This document shows, piece by piece, positions 3,834 through 64,000 of a stretch of DNA of 64,000 nucleotides. Position numbers and translations under genes: made by a program. The notes beneath the pieces are model-generated. The model saw nothing but the letters and a program-made list of their open reading frames with translations. It was not told where the DNA came from and did not search any database. This stretch comes from Malacoraja senta (taxonomy: Eukaryota): NCBI GenBank assembly GCA_038087875.1, contig CM075989.1:16122001-16186000 (forward strand), read 5' to 3'. Numbering within the stretch: the first letter of the stretch is position 1; each line of letters starts with the position of its first letter.

Positions 3834-5112
3834 CATTTTGTGTCCCTCTTTGATATAAACCAGCATCTGCAGTTCCTTTTTATTACATTATATCATTCTG
3901 TTAAACCACCTCTGCACTCTTTCCAAAGCCTCCACATCCTTCCTGTATTGAGGCGACCAGAACTGCACGCAATACTGCAAATGTGGCCTAACCAAAGTCC
4001 GATAAAGCTGTAAGAGGAGGAACCAGTGGGGTTGTGCTATGATTTCCTCAAATAGCAAATTGATGGATGGTGGAAGAACAGATGGAAGAGAGCCACAAGT
4101 CATAACCAGGGTGGTTGGATGGATAAAGTCTTGGGCTTGAAAAGGAGGTGGGGCAGCACTATAGTAGAGTAGCACATTACTTAAAGGCCTATCTGAGGCA
4201 AATTGCTGATCCTGGACTCCATGTCTAGGGACCCACCAAGAAAAGCAGCATTTAGCAAAGCAAACACAAGGAAATGGTTTGAAATAGGCAACTGGTCAGG
4301 CAATATTGATTGAGAAAAACAATATTCAAGTTTGGTGACCTTTCTTCAATGAAGCGAAACATCAATTCCCTTTTATCGCTCATGTGATGATGTCCATTGC
4401 AGTATTTTCCATTTGGCATTTCAATTATCCACACTTTTGCTTATGACTAAATACTGCAAACGTTTGTTTCTGCGCATGGGACCTACTCTGCCCCTGGGGC
4501 AGGCACGCAGGATCCAAAATCCCACGGGGCGTGGTCTGGCGTGTACAGCATGGAACTTGATGCAAGTGCATGCGTCAAAGCTCGTCGATCATTAGCAGGG
4601 CAGTTGTAAGGAAAGCACAGAGGAAAACTATTTTTTAGAACCCACGAGTCCATGGTTTCACTTTGAAAGGCATTCCATTGAAATTGAATCAAACAACATC
4701 CAAAAAACATGGTGCAATACAATCCAGTTTCTAGGCATATTTATATTATCAGCAGAACCATAGTGAATAAGGACAGCACTGTTTCCAGTGGGTGCTCTAC
4801 TTCAGCACAGATAAATGGTCATGCAAGCACTTCTTCAGGAAAGAATACCACTTACAATATGAGTATTATAATATATTTTAGTTCAAACGTCATCAATGCA
4901 GGAGATACTCCCACAAGGTTCTCAATAACATTGAAACAAAAAACATCAAAAAACAACACAGAAAGGATATTTTCCTGAAATAGAACCCATCATTCCAAAA
5001 GCATTATCACCTTTTCTCAATTTTAAAGCAAGAGCTCGGAAGCAACCATTTAATTGCCATTTAATTAATGGAAACCAAGTCACTGTAACCAGCAATATCT
5101 TCAGATATTTAC

Positions 5113-5296
5113 CTGCTGGGGCACCAACCCACGCCAATCCCAAAACGCCATCATCAAAATCACGATCTGTGAACACGTAGGCTAAGCAATAATCATCGTG
5201 ATTCTGTTCCGAATTGAGTTCGAGAAATTTCTCCACTCCAATATTCGCAAACCTAAATGGGTTGCTTCTATCTTTTTCGTGGTTAGTGGTGTTGAT
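5113..5296 (-). CDS. ADAM10: ADAM10 coding exon (equivalent to exon 8, metalloprotease domain), 184 bp
   Basis: ttttcag|ATC AAC ACC...CCA GCA G|gtaaa. Translates [61 protein letters not shown]. Confidence 0.98.
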
Positions 5297-5831
5297 CTGA
5301 AAAGCAGCATTATTTGTGTTAGATAGCAAGCTGAAGAAGGACAAAGGTTGCAACAAAAATATTGTACATAAATAAAATGTGAGGAAATGCATTCCATTGT
5401 ACAGTTAATCCAACATCCTTGGGACTTTAGTGATCAAGAACTGGCAGATTTTGCAGACCATTGGACATTATTGCAATTATTACTCGCACACTTAAATTTA
5501 CTACTTAGATATTACACGTGGCACAAATTTCTCAGCAAATCCGATGTGTCAAAAGGACCGACGGAACCGGACCTTCAGTGTGGCTAGGCAAGTGCAAAAT
5601 CAGCAATCCGAGAACGACACAGAACCATCAGGATCTCCGAACTATTGGAGATTGGAAAGTCAGAGTTACACTGTACAAAGAGTTTGTCTCTCTGGCATTG
5701 CTTACTGGTGACAAAAAAATCTCACTTTTCTGCTTAACTCCAACATGAAGCGCAAAATGCCAGAAATGTTTGTGATCAAGTCCCCTTAGGCTTCTTGTAG
5801 ACACAAATTAGTATTATATATAGGTGTCACA

Positions 5832-6130
5832 GGGGCAGCACAGTGGCGCAACGGTAGAGCTGCTGCCTTACAGCGTCAGGGACCAGGGTTCGGTATATGT
5901 AGGTAGTTGGTACGTTCTCCCTGTGACCTTGTGGCTTTTATCCGGATGCTCCGGTTTCTTCCCACACTTCGCAAACATGTGCAGGTTTGTAGGCTAATTG
6001 GCTTGGTAAAAAATGCAATTTGCCCCAATGGCTGTAGGATAGTGAAATGTGCAGGGATTTCTAACCAATTTAGAGATACAGCGCAGAAACAGGCCCTTTG
6101 GACCAGCGATCCCCGCACACTAACGCACTA
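5832..6130 (+). mobile_element. tRNA-derived V-SINE (HE1-like), followed by a short inverted SINE tail
   Basis: Head gcacagtggcgcaacggtagagctgctgccttacagcg and V-domain ctccggtttcttcccacac. Confidence 0.8.
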
Positions 6131-6512
6131 GACTAAAAAAAGTACACCTGGATTTCAAAGACAATCTGCAGAGACAATTTCAAAGCCCATCCTAATGAAA
6201 GCCATTAAAAGATATGTAATAATAGGACCCATTCTCCCCAATATTTATTTCTGCTTGGTTAACAAATACAATTCCAAAGAACACGAGGTCGACAGTCAGC
6301 AATAATGAGAGGGGATTGTGTAATATAATTTTCATGTTATCAGAATTCCAATGAAGGCAAGGCAAGGCAAGTTTATTTGTATAGCACCTTTCAACCACAA
6401 GGTAATTCAAAATGCTTTACATAAAACATTTAAAGTGAATATTGATTACGTAAAAAACAGTAAAAATACAACCAACGTTGAGGCACAATTTAAATCATAA
6501 AATAATACTCAC

Positions 6513-6605
6513 TCGCACTCTTTTCACCATAAAACTGATATTTCTGATTCCTTGAAAATCAGTCGTCTGGTAAATTGTATCAATTGCTTTAACGTGGCTG
6601 GAAAT
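6513..6605 (-). CDS. ADAM10: ADAM10 coding exon (equivalent to exon 7, metalloprotease domain), 93 bp
   Basis: ttccag|ATT TCC AGC...GTG CGA|gtgagt. Translates [31 protein letters not shown]. Confidence 0.97.
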
Positions 6606-7845
6606 CTGGAATTGAAAACAAATGTTTTTAATTCCCCACCATAAATACAGATTAGGTCAATTCTTTTGCTCAAATACCCACAAGTAACAATCAGAAATGT
6701 AATTTTTCAATTTCCAAGTGAAAAATCTTAAATACTTTCAAACACTAATTCAAAGAAGTTTTCATGGAATTTTCTCAACAGGCGATGCCTCTGCATGTTT
6801 GTAGCCCAGTTCAAACAAACAATCTAAGATACTGCTACAACTATCAAAGCATAATTAGTGAAGGATCATTCATCCTGTGGGAAAAAAGGACACGCCTAAC
6901 ACGTATTGCAATTTTCAAATAAAGCTGTGCCTAACTAAAGAAGTTTAAAGCTTTTCAAACAGAAATGCAGGCAACAGCTTAATTATCCATGACTTATCTA
7001 ATGGGCACTGTTCAGTAACTGGCAGCACCAAGGGAATAGCCAGCCCACATCAAAAACAATGGATAGAACAGATGCAATCATTCTTCAGACTCCAGGATTC
7101 GTATTGCTTTGTGGTCAGATAATTGCATGCTGGAATCCTAAGTACTGATTCTAGACTTTTCTTTATGTTAGCTCTTGGAGAATGGATGGATGCAATGGGA
7201 AATATCCTTACCAGGATGTTCCCTAAATGAAATTATGAAAACTACTGCAAATGCAATTTTTTGTTGTTGAATTTTGTTAATGTTTAAGAATAGATTTTGA
7301 ATTTGGGTCCACTTTGTCTTTACACAAACAAAGGCTCCTTGGTAGTTTTCTCAACACATAGGTTGAAATAAATGACTGCCTTATTGGGTTAATACTCAGT
7401 ACATCCATTATTTAAGTTTAACTCAGAACTTTCAAATGTTCTTTCAAACCAACCACATGGCATCGGGCTGTGTCAGGAATGTAAGTTGCATCTACAGAAT
7501 TTCGTACAACAGATCACATTCATAGTAATTTTCTTCTCAAATCTAACCAAAACATTGGTTGCTCTATCCTCCATTTATTTATTTCTCAAAAAACGAACAA
7601 AAGAAAACAGTCAGTTCAACTATTTGGAATTCAGATCAGCAAGCATCTAATGGCAAAGCAATATGAATGCTTGTCTGACCATCATACTTTGTAGCTCATC
7701 TCATTTGTCCTTCACATGTGCATTGATTTTGCAAACTTATTAAATATCAATACATCCAATAAAACAAGTTTGATTTCATTGCATGCAAACATACAATTGA
7801 TGGGCAAAGCACTTTTAAATTGAACAATTTATTGCCTTTTCATAC

Positions 7846-8007
7846 CTGAGCTATTACTGCCTCTCTTGAACCATAGTAGTTAAAGAACAGATGATCAGTT
7901 GAATAAAGAGCTGACATGTGTTTTTCTCCTCTGGAGATGCCCGCCGTTTCCTCAAAATAATTTGGTTCTTGATTGCCTTCGTGTTCATGTTCAAAGTTCA
8001 CAGGCGC
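7846..8007 (-). CDS. ADAM10: ADAM10 coding exon (equivalent to exon 6, prodomain/metalloprotease boundary), 162 bp, with an internal compensated frameshift
   Basis: ctgcacag|GCG CCT...GCT CAG|gtatg. The C-terminal part TDHLFFNYYGSREAVIAQ matches ADAM10. The central 63 nt match ADAM10 (ILRKRR...EKNTCQLFIQ) only in the +1 frame. The acceptor position is less certain than the donor. Confidence 0.9.
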
Positions 8008-8679
8008 CTGTGCAGAGCAAACCACAAAGAGTTGACAACGTCATCCCACTTGGAACAATATTAAATGGTGCCACTGATTTCCAAGTACTATGCCAGCCAG
8101 GCTATGTTGTAGGTTCTCTGGTTGGCGTCAGCCTCAAAGGAATAATCGAGACCATTTGTTTCTCTCAGAGTAGTGGAGAGGTTGCATTTGCCGCTTTTAA
8201 AACGGTCCAAATATGATTTGAAATGTTAAAAATAAGGAAAATAAACAGTAACCCATTTAATTTAATTAGGCAGTACTAGCTTCAAAGTTACTTGCATCGA
8301 ACCGAATGTGATCCTTTGAAGTATATCCTCAACTGCACATGGTAATATGACAACTACCTTAGTTAGCTGACTAGGCAAGGAATAACCCCTAATCCTTTGA
8401 ACGTCATGACCCAAAACGTTACCCATCCATTGTCTCCAGAGATGCTGCCTGACCCGCTGAGAATTACTCCAGCATTCTGTTTCTACCCCTAATCCTTTGT
8501 ACACTATGAAGAGTTCCAAGTTCGTTATTTATTTTATAAAAATTAAAATCATAATACTAAACTCACTCGAGGATTAATTCTAAACAGAATGCTGGAGTTC
8601 TAAGCAACCTGGTCGTAGAAAATTGTACATTAAAATTCTGTGAAAGTATTTCAAAGTAGAAATAAATAATGCACTCTCG

Positions 8680-8990
8680 ATGATGCTTTCTTCTGAACGC
8701 TATGTTGAACCAAAGCTCCACCTGCTCTCTTGGGTGGACTTAAAAGATTGCATGGAGTCATTTTGAAGAGCGACAGAGACTCCACCAGCATACGGGCCAA
8801 TGGTTCTCCCTTGCTCACCATCGCAAAATGATGGCTTTATCACATAGCCTTTTGTGGACGCTTCCTGTGTGCAGATTGTTGGTGCAGTAATAAAAGCAAT
8901 TGCACTTCAAATGTGCTTCACTGGTCGTTAAGTGTTTCAGGACATTCCCCCAGCTCGTGAATAGCACTATACAGAAAGGCAATTCAATTC
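8680..8990 (+). mobile_element. Old Deu-domain SINE (SacSINE1/AmnSINE1-like)
   Basis: ctgctctcttgggtggacttaaaagattgcatgg...cctgtgtgcagattg...cacttcaaatgtgcttcactgg...cactata resembles the recalled Deu-SINE consensus; not aligned computationally. Confidence 0.55.
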
Positions 8991-9699
8991 CACAATAATA
9001 GGATTGGACACATTTCAGAACGTGTAAATGGAGATTTTACAGGAAAGTGTCTTTACAGTAAAATTTACATTAGAACTTCATGTACACAAAACAAAAAATT
9101 CTGAAACGATAAAAAATAACACTCAGTAATTCAGTCAGGTTTCATTAGCTAATTTAACATTTTAGAAACATCTGTATGCTTGTACTGTGCACTGCTCTCT
9201 TCGTCCTATGTTTTAATTGCACACCCTTTAATGTCCTGCAGACTAAAAGTATCAATTCTATCGAGTTGATTCATCTCCCATTCTGCTATTAACCTAATCC
9301 TTCCACAAGCCTGGAACAGCCAATCTTTTCAATGTACTTTATCTTATCACCGACACTCTCCAACAATGAGTTTAGCATTTCAGATAGGTTTCAAATGAAC
9401 AGGATATTGTCTTTGAATAACAAATGTTAATTCTGTTACCCTGTAATCCAATTTTTTTTAAATCACAATGTGGAATTTTATCAAATACGAATGCTTAATT
9501 GTCAAGTTTCAGATGTATTTTTTCTTGATGAATTAACAGATGATTATTCAAATTTTCTTTGGCTTACACATATCTTTTTGAAGCTTTGATTAAGGATCTG
9601 TAATGGCATGTAAATGTTAAAACAAGATCCCAAACAAATTTGTCCAGCAGTTTTCATACCCAACTGTTTACCAAAGTACTTCATTAAATATTTTTGAAG

Positions 9700-11026: not shown

Positions 11027-11130
11027 CTGTGATGTTGGCTCTTCTACCGAAAGCATCTGGTACTTCTTCATTCTTTCAAACACCGAATGGTCTGCACATC
11101 CTCCTGCTGGTCCATATTTGTGCGGGTATT
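11027..11130 (-). CDS. ADAM10: ADAM10 coding exon (equivalent to exon 5, Cys-switch-like region), 104 bp
   Basis: cctag|AA TAC CCG...TCA CAG|gtaagc. Translates (K)[34 protein letters not shown]. Confidence 0.96.
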
Positions 11131-19889: not shown

Positions 19890-21820
19890 CATAGAGTCAC
19901 AGTGTGATACAGTGTGGAAACAGGTCCTTCGGCCCAACATGCTCACACCGGCCAACATGTCCAGCTACGCTAGTCCCACCTGCCTGCGCTTGGTCCATAC
20001 CCCTACTCTGGGCAAGAGACTCTGCCCATCTACCCGATCTATTCCTCTCACGATTTTGTACACCTTTATAAAATCACCCCTCATCCTCCTGCACTCCAAG
20101 GAATAGAGACCCAGCCTACTCAACCTCACTCAACCTCTCCCTATAGCTCACACCCTCTTGCCCTGGCAACATCCTCGTAGATCTTCACTGAACCCTTTCA
20201 AGCTTGACAATATCTTTCCTATAACATGGTGCCCAGAACTGAACATAATATTCTAAACGCAGTCTCACCAACGTCTTATACAACTGCAACATGACCTCCC
20301 AACTTCAATACTCTATACTCTGACTGATGAAGGCCAATGTGCCAAAGCCTTTTTGACCACCTTATCTACCTGCGACTCGACCTTCATGGAACCATGTACC
20401 TGTACTCCTAGATCCCTCTGTTCGACAACACTCCCCAGAGGCCTACCATTCACTGTGTAGATCTTACCCTTGTTAGGTAGACACAAAATGCTGGAGTAAC
20501 TCAGTGGGTGAGGCAGCATCTCTGGAGAGAAGGAATGGGCGACGTTTTGGGTCGAGACCCTTCTTCAGACTGATGTCAGCCTTATTAGATGTCCCAAAAT
20601 GCAACACCTCCCACTTCCCTGTATTAAATTCCATCAATCATTCCTCAGCCCACCTGGCCAATCGATCCAGATCCTGCTGCAATCTTTCACAACCATCTTC
20701 ACTATTTGCAAAACCACCCACTTTTGTATCATCAGCAAACTTTTTAATCTTGCCCTGTATGTTCTCATCCAATTGATGTAGATGACAAACAGTAAGGGGC
20801 CCAGCACTGAACCATGAGGCACACCACTAGTCACAGACCTCCAGTCAGAGAAACCTTCCACCATCATCCTCTGCTTCTTCCCATGGAGCCAATTTGCTAT
20901 CCATCCAGCTATCTCTCCCTGGATCTCATGCGATCTAACCTTACAGAGCAGCGTACTATGTGTAACCTTGTCAAATGCTTTACTGAAATCCATGTATGCA
21001 ACATCTACAGCTCTGCCCTCATTGAACTTTTTGGTCACGTCTTAAATTTTTTTTTTTTAAATCAGATTTGTGCGACACGACCTTCAACTAACAAAACCAT
21101 GCTGACTATCCCTACTCAGTCCTTGCCCGTCCAAATGCCTGTATATCCTATCCCTCAGAATACTCTCTAGTAACTTTCCAACTACAAATGTTAAGCTCAC
21201 CGGCCTATAGTTCCCAGCATTTTCCCTGCAGCCCTTTTTGAAAAGAGGCACAACATTTGCCACCCTCCAGTCTTTCAGCACCTCTCCTGCATTTAAGGAC
21301 GACTCATAAATTTCAACCAGGACTCCCACAATTTCCTCCCTGGTTTCCCACAATGTCCCTCGGATATATTTGATCATGCCCTGGAGAATTGTCTACCTTC
21401 ATACACGATAGTACCTTCAGTACTTCTTCGACAGTAGCACTGACTGCTCTCAAGACACTTCCATTGACTGCTCAAGTTCCTCCGTCCTACTGTCTTCAGT
21501 AAATACAGAGAAATACTCGTTGAGGACCTTGCCCATCTCCTGTGGCTCCACACAGAGGTGGCCGCTTTGATTCCTGGGAGGTCCCACACTCTCTCTAGTT
21601 ATCCTTTTCCCCCTTTATGTCTTTATAAATCTTTGGGATTGTCTAATGCTACCTGCCAGAACTATCTCCCTGGCCCCTTTTTGCCCTTCTGATCTTCTTT
21701 TTCAGTTTACTCCTTAGTTCCGAAAACTCCTCCAGGGATGCACTTGATCCCAGCTGCCTATACCTGTCCCAAAACAATTGTTTTTGACCATGCCTTAATT
21801 TCCCTCGTCAGCCAAGCTTC
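19890..21820 (-). mobile_element. Degraded CR1 LINE (RT region) with a Penelope-tail insertion at about 20477-20579
   Basis: ORF pieces WRVANVVPLFKKG...NYRPVSLT, YMDFSKAFDKV and VTSGVPHGSVLGPLLF, with frameshifts. Confidence 0.9.
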
Positions 21821-39174: not shown

Positions 39175-41790
39175 ATACATAGATACATAGAAATTAGGTG
39201 CAGGAGTAGGCCATTCGGCCCTTCGAGCCTGCACCGCCATTCAATACGATCATGGTTGATCATCCAACTCAGTATCCCGTACCTGCCTTCTCTCCATACC
39301 CCCTGATCCCTTTAGCCACAAGGGCCACATCTAATTCCCTCTTAAATATAGCCAATGAACTGGCCTCAACTACCCTCTGTGGCAGAGAGTTCCAGAGATT
39401 CACCACTCTCTGTGTGAAAACGTTTTTCCTCATCTCGGTCTTAAAGGATTTCCCCCTTATCCTTAAGCTGTGACCCCTTGTCCTGGACTTCCCCAACATC
39501 GGGAACAATCTTCCTGCATCTAGCCTGTCCATCCCCATAAGAATCTTGTACGTTTCTATAAGATCCCCTCTCAATCTCCTAAATTCTAGCGAGTATAAGC
39601 CAAGTCTATCCAGTCTTTCTTCATATGAAAGTCCTGACATCCCAGGAATCAGTCTGGTGAACCTTCTCTGCACTCCCTCTATGGCTATAATGTCCTTCCT
39701 CAGATTTGGAGACCAAAACTGTACGCAATACTCCAGGTGTGGTCTCACCAAGACCCTGTACAACTGCAGTAGAACCTCCCTGCTCCTATACTCAAATCCT
39801 CTTGCTATGAAGGCCAACATACCATTCGCTTTCTTCACTGCCTGCTGCACCTGCATGCCTACTTTCAATGACTGGTGTACCATGACACCCAGGTCTCGCT
39901 GCATCTCCCCATTTCCTAATCGGCCACCATTTAGATAATAGTCTGCCTTCCCGTTTTTGCTACCAAAGTGGATAACCTCACATTTATCCACATTATACTG
40001 CATCTGCCAAACATTTGCCCACTCACCCAGCCTATCCAAGTCACCTTGCAGTCTCCTAGCATCCTCCTCACAGCTAACACTGCCCCCCAGCTTAGTGTCA
40101 TCCGCAAACTTGGAGATGTTGCTTTCAATTCCCTCGTCCAGATCATTAATATAAATTGTAAATAGCTGGGGTCCCAGCACTGAGCCTTGTGGTACCCCAC
40201 TAGTCACTGCCTGCCATTGTGAAAAGGACCCGTTTACTCCTACTCTTTGCTTCCTGTTTGCCAGCCAGTTCTCTATCCACATCAATACTGAACCCCCAAT
40301 ACCGTGTGATTTAAGTTTGTATCCTAATCTCTTATGTGGTACCTTGTCGAAAGCCTTCTGAAAGTCCAGATACAACACATCCACTGGTTCTCCCCCATCC
40401 ACTCTACTAGTTACATCCTCGAAAAATTCTATAAGATTCGTCAGACACGATTTACCTTTCGTAAATCCATGCTGACTTTGTCCAATGATTTCACCACTTT
40501 CCAAATGTGCTGCTATCCCATCTTTAATAACTGACTCTAGCAGTTTCCCCACTACCGATGTTAGACTAACTGGTCTGTAATTCCCCGTTTTCTCTCTCCC
40601 TCCCTTCTTAAAAAGTGGGGTTACGTTTGCTACCCTCCAATCCTCAGGAACTACTCCAGAATCTAAAGAGTTTTGAAAAATTATCACTAATGCATCCACT
40701 ATTTCTGGAGCTACTTCCTTAAGTACTCTGGGATGCAGCCTATCTGGCCCTGGTGATTTATCGGCCTTTAATCCATTCAATTTACCCAACACCACTTCCC
40801 GACTAACCTGGATTTCACTCAGTTCCTCCATCTCCTTTGACCCGCGGCCCCCTGCTATTTCCGGCAGATTATTTATGTCTTCCTTAGTGAAGACGGAACC
40901 AAAGTAGTTATTCAATTGGTCTGCCATATCCTTGTTCCCCATGATCAATTCACCTGTTTCTGACTGCAAGGGACCTACATTTGATTTAACTAATCTCTTT
41001 CTCTTCACATATCTATAAAAACTTTTGCAGTCAGTTTTTATGTTCCCTGCCAGTTTCCTTTCATAATCTATTTTCCCTTTCCTAATTAAGCCCTTTGTCC
41101 TCCTCTGCTGGTCTCTGAATTTCTCCCAGTCCTCTGGTATGCTGCTTTTTCTGGCTAATTTGTACGCATCATCTTTTGCTTTGATACTATCCCTGATTTC
41201 CCTTGTTATCCACGGATGCACTACCTTCCTTGATTTATTCTTTTGCCAAACTGGGATGAACAATTTTTGTAGTTCATCCATGCAGTCTTTAAATGCCTTC
41301 CATTGCATATCCACCGTCAACCCTTTTAGAACTAATTGCCAGTCAATCTTGGCCAATTCACGTCTCATACCCTCAAAGTTACCTTTCTTTAAGTTCAGAA
41401 CCGTTGTTTCTGAATTAACAATGTCACTCTCCATCCTAATGAAGAACTCAACCATATTATGATCACTCTTGCCCAAGGGGGCACGCACAACAAGTCTGCT
41501 AACTAACCCTTCCTCATTACTCAATACCCAGTCTAGAATAGCCTGCTCTCTCGTTGGTTCCTCTACATGTTGGTTTAGATAACTATCCCTCATACATTCC
41601 AAGAAATCCTCTTCCTCAGCACCCCTGCCAATTTGATTCACCCAATCTATATGTAGATTGAAGTCACCCATTATAACTGTTTTGCCTTTGTTGCACGCAT
41701 TTCTAATTTCCTGTTTGATGCCATCCCCAACTTCACTACTACTGCTAGGTGGCCTGTACACAACGCCCACCAGCGTTTTCTGCCCCTTAG
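39175..41790 (-). mobile_element. Young 5'-truncated CR1 (HER1-like) LINE: partial APE endonuclease plus reverse transcriptase ORF2 and 3' UTR
   Basis: Uninterrupted ORF to the stop at 39269, with VYRPP, MGDFN and SDHN (APE) and NYRPVSL, LDFQKAFDKV, GVPQGSVLGP and KFADDTKL (RT). 8-mer tail (tctatgta)n at about 39175-39192; tgtttg on both flanks. Confidence 0.97.
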
Positions 41791-42295
41791 TGTTTGGAGT
41801 GTGTACGTTCTCCATGTGACCGGAGCCTTGCACAAAACATTATTCCCATATCATGTATCTATACACTGTAATGGCGCAATTGTCTTTCCGCTAACCAGAT
41901 AGCACGCAATAAAAGCTTTTCACTGTACCTCGGTACCTTTGACAATAAATTAAACTGAACTGATCTAATGATCTGGCCTCTGCACTAGTGGGAGCGGGGA
42001 ATTACAGACTTTCACCACCTATGAGAGATTTCTACATTTCCCACTTTCAAAAGACTGGCCCTTATTTTGTGGCCACGTCCCTTTGATTGTGACACTTTAA
42101 ACAAGTTTGACAGTTCTCTAGAGATGACCGCAAAATGTCAGGGCACAGAGGAAAATCCACACCAGGGCTTCTTGAAAATGGCATAGTAGAACGGCCATCG
42201 GTAAACCATAATCAATCTTTCATCCAAGTTACACTCCCATAACCTCTGCACGGTACAGAAGACGACCCCAGATCCATTACCATCTGTAGTCAGTG

Positions 42296-45319: not shown

Positions 45320-46492
<1,173 letters not shown>

Positions 46493-46642
46493 ACTAAGCG
46501 ACATGTTACTCTAAGCAACAAGCAAAACATCAGTAACCAAAAATAATTTGTACAACTACTCAAAACTTAGATCATTTATACTCTTCACTTTGGTACTTTC
46601 TCCACAGTCCCTAATTTTGTGTCACATGCACAGAGGTACACT

Positions 46643-61121: not shown

Positions 61122-62118
61122 ATTAGAGATACAGCACTGGAAACATGCCCTTCGGCCCACCGAGTCAGTACCGACCAGCGATTGCCACACATTAATATTA
61201 TCTTATACGCATGCTAGGGACAATTTACGCTTATACCAAGCCAATTAACCTACATATTCTTCCCTTCCCACCCGCACCACCCCCTCCCCGGGCACTTTCC
61301 CTTTCAACCGCAAGAGATGCTACACGTGTCGCTTTACCTCCCCCCTCTACTCCATTCAAGGACCCAAGCAGTCGTTCCAGGTGCGACAGAGGTTCACCTG
61401 CATCTCCTCCAACCTCATCTATTGCATCCGCTGCTCTAGATGTCAGCTGATCTACATCGGTGAGACCAAGCGCAGGCTTGGCGATCGTTTCGCCGAACAC
61501 CTCCGCTTGGTCCACATTAACCAACCTGATCTCCCTGTGGCTCAGCACTTCACTTCCCCTCCCATTCCAAATCCAACCATTCTGTCCTGGGCCTCCTCCA
61601 TTGCCAGAGTGAGTACCACCGGAAACTGGAGGAGCAGCACCTCATATTCCGCTTGCGCAGTCTGCATCCCGGTGGCCTGAACATTGACTTCTCCAATTTC
61701 TGGTAGCCCTTGCTGTCTCCTCCCCTTCTCAGCTCTCCCTCTTCCCTCTGGCTCCTCCTCTTCCTTTCTTCTTCCTGCCCCCCCCCCCACCCTGCATCAG
61801 TCTGAAGAAGGGTTTCGGCCCAAAACGTTGCCTATTTCCTTTGCTCCATAGATGGTGCCGCACCCGCTGAGTTTCTCCAGCATTTTTGTCTACCTTCGAT
61901 TTTCCAACATCTGCAGTTCCTTCTTGAACATTTAACCTACAAACCTGTATGTCTTTGGAGTGTGAGAGGAAACCGATGATCTTGGAGAAAACCCACGCGG
62001 TCACGCGGAGAATGTACAAACTCCGTACAGACAGCACCCGTAGTCGGGATCGAACTCGGGTTTCTGGCGCTGCAAGCACTGTAACGCAGCAACTCTACTG
62101 CTGCGCCAATGTGCCGCC
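61122..62118 (-). mobile_element. V-SINE split by a Penelope insertion (pieces about 61122-61254 and 61932-62118)
   Basis: The SINE sequence resumes after a duplicated ttaacctaca (61245-61254 / 61932-61941). Confidence 0.85.
61255..61931 (+). mobile_element. 5'-truncated Penelope-like element: GIY-YIG endonuclease end plus hammerhead-bearing tail, 10-bp TSD
   Basis: RQRFTCISSNLIYCIRCSRCQLIYIGETKRRLGDRFAEHLR; ctgaagaagggtttcggcccaaaacgttg at about 61802-61830. Confidence 0.9.
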
Positions 62119-63014: not shown

Positions 63015-64000
63015 TCTAAATGTTACTAAAATTGTGTGTGTAGGCGTGAGTGCGTGACGTTTCAAAACTCCGCCAAAACGGTACACGATAGCGCTACAAT
63101 TTTTGGCCCACCTTACTCACCATTATCCTGGGATGTAAAACGGACAAGTTTTGTTATGATTGATGTTTTATTTTAAAGGTTATTGACATTTTAAACTTTA
63201 CAAAAGGCACTTTAACACTTTTCCACTTGCCCTTACCATCAGCCGCGTCATAATGAAGTCACAATGGGACCCCGAATCTTATTTACATAAAAAATCTTGA
63301 TTTTTAAAAAATCCGTCTTAATCAAATCTTCCGTTTTCATTAACAGCTAACATTGTGTTTAGGTTTCTAAAAGAAAAAATGCAATATTTAAATGCAATAG
63401 CGATTTTCATTGTGGGGGGGGGGGGAGCTTTAAAAAAAAACACCACGATTTTTATTGTGGGGTGGGATGGGGAAAGGTGAGGAGTGGGGAAGCAGGGGGA
63501 TAGAGGAGGAGGAGGGGGAGGGAGGGGAGAGGGGTTATGGAGGGAGGGAGGGACTGAGGGTATCCGTGTGTGCGGATTTTAAATTAACTGAAAGTCTCCC
63601 CGCGCATGCGCAGTGGGCCCGGTATCCGCGCGTGCGGGATTTGAAATGGCCATGGTGCTGAGGCTGGAGCGAGGTCTGGGGACGACGGCGTCCGGGCCCG
63701 CAGGGAGGGCGAGGAGTGGGACCTGGGGCAATGACTAAGCCGCAGCATCGGCATCCCGCCGGCTCCAGGCCGCTCGGCCCGGCCCCCCGACAGCCACCGC
63801 CTCAAGTACGGGATTTGAAATGACAGCGGCCCTGAGGCTGGGACTAGGTCTGGCAGCAGTGGCGTTGCTGCTCCGAGCCCGCGGGGAGGGAGAGGAGCAG
63901 GACCCAGGGCAAGGACTAGGCCGCAGCCTCGGCTTCTCCCTCCCCCGGCTGCAGTCCACTTGGCCCGTCCCCCCCGACAGCCCCCACCTCAAGTACAATT
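63015..64000 (+). mobile_element. Probable Helitron-like element (5' part, runs off the window end) with GC-rich tandem repeats
   Basis: A|TCtaaatgttactaaaa resembles the 5' end of the 55635-56023 Helitron; both have a G-rich tract followed by gcgc(a/c)tgcgcagt. The 3' end is not visible. Confidence 0.5.
63635..63995. repeat. Two diverged tandem GC-rich units (63635-63808, 63809-63995)
   Basis: Both begin cgggatttgaaatg and end ccccccgacagcc...cctcaagta. Confidence 0.85.

Follow-up and report, generated by a model that had tools for sequence, protein, structure and literature searches.

A 64,000-nucleotide stretch of the Malacoraja senta assembly (hereafter the window) carries an exon of the ADAM10 gene that translates without a stop and in which 63 nt are written out of frame between two single-base indels. 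As written, the encoded protein lacks the convertase site at the boundary between its prodomain and its catalytic domain, which raises the question of whether this skate harbors a natural compensated frameshift or whether the frameshift is confined to the written sequence.

The minus strand carries six consecutive ADAM10 exons in order, each bounded by AG and GT and in phase with the next: exon 3 at 37880..37998 (119 nt), exon 4 at 31355..31513 (159 nt), exon 5 at 11027..11130 (104 nt, ending in phase 0), the exon of the prodomain/catalytic boundary at 7846..8007 (162 nt, phase 0 to 0), which we take to be exon 6 after the human gene structure, exon 7 at 6513..6605 (93 nt), and exon 8 at 5113..5296 (184 nt). 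Exons 3–5 and 7 were delimited by tblastn, AG/GT ends, and phases, exon 6 by tblastn with the proteins P0001 and P0029 and its AG/GT ends and phases, and exon 8 additionally by protein search. Exon order and phase identify the gene as an ADAM10 ortholog, the top protein matches are named ADAM10, and the best match of the window exons is ADAM10 of the skate Amblyraja radiata (P0001), which marks the genome as skate-like. Relative to skate ADAM10 (Amblyraja radiata XP_032906527.1, Leucoraja erinacea XP_055517192.1), the window has a small number of substitutions, among them Asn in place of Asp at 7974, and thus probably belongs to a different skate; its exons 3–5, 7, and 8 align to P0001 without a single gap (tblastn identity of the window exons 85–98%, with intron overhang counted in). 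The two indels of exon 6, by contrast, are confined to the written window and missing from P0001. Sensitive tblastn placed neither exons 1–2 nor exons 9 onward within the window; exon 2 went undetected in the 26 kb that precede exon 3, and a G+C-rich stretch at the end of the window (63450–64000) matched neither of the first two ADAM10 exons in the same search.

Several retroelements share the window with these exons. What is presumably intron 2, preceding exon 3, contains a young LINE element at 39272–41839 (minus strand), whose reading frame stays open for 856 codons and encodes endonuclease (PF14529) and reverse-transcriptase (PF00078) domains. Further retroelement fragments are found at 46102–46566, 45806–46219, and 20637–21041 on the minus strand and at 61249–61677 on the plus strand; these include reverse-transcriptase pieces, one of them adjoined by a match to PF09004 (ALKBH8_N), and a weak GIY-YIG match below the curated cut-off, which is presumably Penelope-like.

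Spliced from exon 5 (11130–11027), exon 6 (8007–7846) is entered in phase 0 behind an AG acceptor and read without a stop to its GT donor, as the first-pass annotation had described. Residues 16–36 of this reading are unlike ADAM10, and because this 21-residue stretch is foreign, the written exon aligns to P0001 at 57% only (tblastn). The 63 nt in question (7899..7961, minus strand) read as normal ADAM10 in the +1 frame, where they encode a 21-residue peptide identical to residues 216–236 of P0001, far beyond chance, so that the ADAM10-like character proposed for this frame holds to the letter. The two indels likewise lie where they had been placed, in the plus-strand TTT at 7961..7963 and TT at 7899..7900, although the short A runs to which they were attributed are merely 2–3 bases long. 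The pair consists of one +1 and one −1 event 63 nt apart with no stop between them, and thus restores the frame; directly behind the second indel, a TGA at 7897–7895 is the first stop that the shifted frame would meet. A site of the form R-X-[K/R]-R is present in the +1 frame and missing in the written one: a convertase site had rightly been expected at this boundary, with the difference that the skate sequence is RKRR rather than the anticipated RKKR. Against a large protein database, the written exon matched only P0001 among five candidates, at 65% identity, the otherwise blank result being weak evidence. The 21-residue +1-frame peptide found no match in the PDB, the query probably being too short, and the whole exon matched three chains of human ADAM10 through its 3′ part.

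We then compared the segment across related proteins, scoring 136 of them (120 listed of 378 matches plus 16 cluster members, 14 of 29 cluster 1 members being unlisted) and counting a segment match at a score of at least 50. The normal +1-frame segment was present in 125 of the 136; all 125 keep the cysteine, and 124 keep R-X-[K/R]-R. The shifted peptide as written occurred in none of the 136, its best score being 27, and the other 11 proteins, without a segment match, look like fragments or gene models that lack the segment. A comparison with cartilaginous fishes, suggested by the first-pass annotation and carried out here at the protein level, gave an intact segment in 18 of 19 proteins, the remaining one being a 90-residue fragment without the region. 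The segment cysteine is conserved and has a presumed structural role; a literature search for its disulfide partner in ADAM10 returned no relevant paper. The human sequence just past the convertase site is visible in PDB chains 8esv_A and 6be6_A. According to PMC9863580, the boundary site of ADAM10 has the form R-X-[K/R]-R and is RKKR in human, a second site lies upstream, and ADAM10 activity in cells is lower once the convertase sites are replaced. Separately, ADAM10 of Heptranchias perlo (P0126) is the sole protein among the 125 without R-X-[K/R]-R; it reads R-K-P-R, with Pro in third position and a minimal R-X-X-R left, and may reflect either true variation or an error.

To compare the written sequence with sequencing data, we considered 24 public runs listed for positions 4500–9500 and compared four of them over 7500–9300. 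X1 and X2 come from the matching organism (organism A), carry different sample codes, and have sampled-word fractions of 0.91 and 0.82, respectively; they do not necessarily come from the assembled individual. X3 and X9 are runs of two relatives. The comparison is based on Logan contigs rather than raw reads, and such contigs may drop heterozygous variants; per-contig counts cover the X1 and X2 locus contigs in full. None of the 24 runs is an RNA run, and the data have no bearing on expression.

Both exon indels were missing in all four runs, which have one base less at 7961, at full listed depth, and an extra T behind 7898. The runs thus show two bases where the window has three (7961–7963) and three where it has two (7899–7900), and so support the +1 frame with its RKRR. 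This run-length check had been proposed beforehand, and on the contigs of the four runs it returned normal lengths, the outcome that had been set down for an artefact. A third window-only indel was detected 350 bases away in the intron, at the plus-strand CC of 7547..7548, where all four runs, relatives included, have one base fewer. Over 7500–8450, the X1 contig (depth 22.8) differs from the window by these three gaps and by no other letter, and over 8435–9300 by no letter and no gap. X2 likewise shows three gaps and no other letter over 7500–8450, at a depth of 3.3 that is below the caution threshold of 5; two of its bins near 8537–8658 are uncovered. At substitution sites that set the window apart from the relatives (e.g., 7974, Asn vs Asp), X1 and X2 have the same letters as the window and so fit its organism, yet at all three indel sites they agree with the relatives. 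The two substitutions of X3 within the segment (E to E and E to D) fall on third positions of the +1 frame and would fall on first positions of the written frame. As a separate observation, the stretch 8400–8490 belongs to a short repeat of very high copy number that is probably SINE-derived; contig depths there add up to millions in each of the four runs.

Since all four compared runs lack both exon indels, we consider these very probably to be assembly consensus errors and think it likely that the ADAM10 of this animal has kept its normal convertase site and cysteine, in line with the paired errors that the first-pass annotation had favored. The loss of the furin site and of the cysteine, proposed in the same place, applies to the written sequence only. 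The real protein likely keeps RKRR and the cysteine, and the frameshift pair is likely a feature of the written sequence rather than of the animal. The errors would come from a short, poorly polished stretch (about 7547–7963) in which runs of 2–3 bases were miscounted, a known failing of noisy long-read consensus. Two of the three slips landed in the exon; they have opposite signs and are separated by no stop, which would hide the pair from gene predictors.

The form of the differences points the same way. All three are window-only single-base indels, lie within 415 bases, sit in runs of 2–3 bases, and are accompanied by no substitution, which fits a local consensus error. Real divergence at this locus, as seen in the X3 contig over 8433–9300, comprises 20 substitutions against five indel events, one of them of a single base; at X3 rates, and subject to this small sample, three out of three differences would be indels with a probability of about 0.008, and single-base indels with a probability of about 6e-5 to 4e-4. 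Three indels out of three are therefore unlikely for real variation, as divergence here consists mostly of substitutions. According to PMC8081667, on long-read vertebrate assemblies, short consensus-calling indels are the commonest errors of CLR assemblies and result in frameshifts in genes that were locally left unpolished, with hummingbird TLK1 as one such case. The window resembles these errors in form (single-base indels, short runs, a frameshift, and a local unpolished stretch), is free of substitutions, and is contradicted by the matching X1 and X2 data over 7500–8450. It differs from the cases described there in that two of its errors cancel, so that neither a stop nor a change in length flags the gene. 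If three errors strike 951 bases, two of them hit the exon with opposite signs at a probability of about 0.04, and among random exonic pairs of this type about 38% would be stop-free; hidden pairs are thus expected occasionally genome-wide. Several observations run counter to a consensus error, however. The window is not error-rich overall: 659 nt of the five other exons are free of indels, 8435–9300 is identical to X1, and the LINE frame is open for 856 codons, so that a local error patch must be assumed. The position of the second indel directly before the shifted-frame stop is also a mild coincidence.

That same position would also be seen in a real pair under selection. Both indels might lie on a haplotype private to the assembled animal and probably heterozygous in it; the encoded ADAM10 would lack the cysteine as well as the convertase site at the boundary and would therefore mature poorly. 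This explanation, which we regard as improbable, would account for a frame restored directly before the first stop and for neighboring exons without errors, and contigs, which may drop heterozygous variants, cannot show the absence of an allele. A selected real pair would also end before the shifted-frame stop, but so must any stop-free pair. A haplotype of this kind would further need three single-base indels and no substitution, and if X1 and X2 came from the same heterozygous animal, the ancestral allele would appear at three sites in both runs in about 1.6% of cases, assuming random choice. It would also have to break a segment kept in 125 of the 136 proteins. According to PMC8935012, real compensated pairs (pCFM) are known in vertebrates, and the window pair has their form: one base is inserted and another deleted some tens of bases away, and the frame is regained. 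The same paper reports 624 candidate genes, most of them in a single species, warns of sequencing and assembly noise, and keeps six after filters that call for several species and independent support; its pCFM genes also tend to be less conserved, whereas the window pair hits a highly conserved segment. High-confidence pairs are thus seen in several species and in independent data, while the window pair is known from one sequence that is contradicted by all four runs: it is missing in both runs of the matching organism, in both relatives' runs, and in the 136 proteins checked. As a single sequence that independent data do not support, it falls short on both counts. A literature search for ADAM10 frameshifts in skates found no paper. 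Taken together, a natural compensated frameshift that segregates as a polymorphism in an essential sheddase, stop-free and deleting the boundary site and a conserved cysteine, appears highly improbable, and retains a slight probability because contigs can drop heterozygous alleles, X1 and X2 may come from other individuals, the rest of the window looks clean, and the stop coincidence persists.

The remaining explanations are less probable still. The ADAM10 copy in the window could be a paralog or pseudogene, recently duplicated or in decay, with the contigs of the runs stemming from an intact copy. A short extra depth in one exon bin (7866–7926) of X1 and X9 would be compatible with this, while there are no substitutions relative to X1 over 1801 bases of intron and exon at the locus, depth is flat at about 20–23, and one contig is found at each indel site, leaving a second copy very improbable. 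The extra depth is small and comes from short pieces that leave the indel sites uncovered and could stem from a related gene or match by chance. With two bases at 7961–7963 and three at 7899–7900 in the runs, the frameshifted allele or paralog offered as the more interesting alternative in the first-pass annotation finds no support. Another explanation would take the written sequence as real and have the convertase site rescued by splicing into the +1 frame at a different acceptor, past the AG near 7976. AG dinucleotides for such an entry do occur at 8048, 7976, and 7967, but each tested +1 entry passes the site and then meets two stops at 7856–7851 before the donor, so that the acceptor suggested near 7975 leads to a reading that ends at a stop; the indels are in any case missing in the runs, and we judge this explanation to have next to no probability. 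Among nine AG sites from 8060 to 7896, only those at 8007 and 7950 are open to the donor, and neither yields the convertase site.

Cancelling indel errors of the type favored here leave a full-length, stop-free gene model that checks for stops or truncation would miss. A comparative study could therefore report the false loss of a maturation site. The cluster of three slips flags the stretch of about 7547–7963 for re-polishing. If the pair were a true allele, it would provide a natural test of ADAM10 maturation without the boundary site. Overall, ADAM10 of this skate appears normal, and the biological weight of the frameshift is likely nil.
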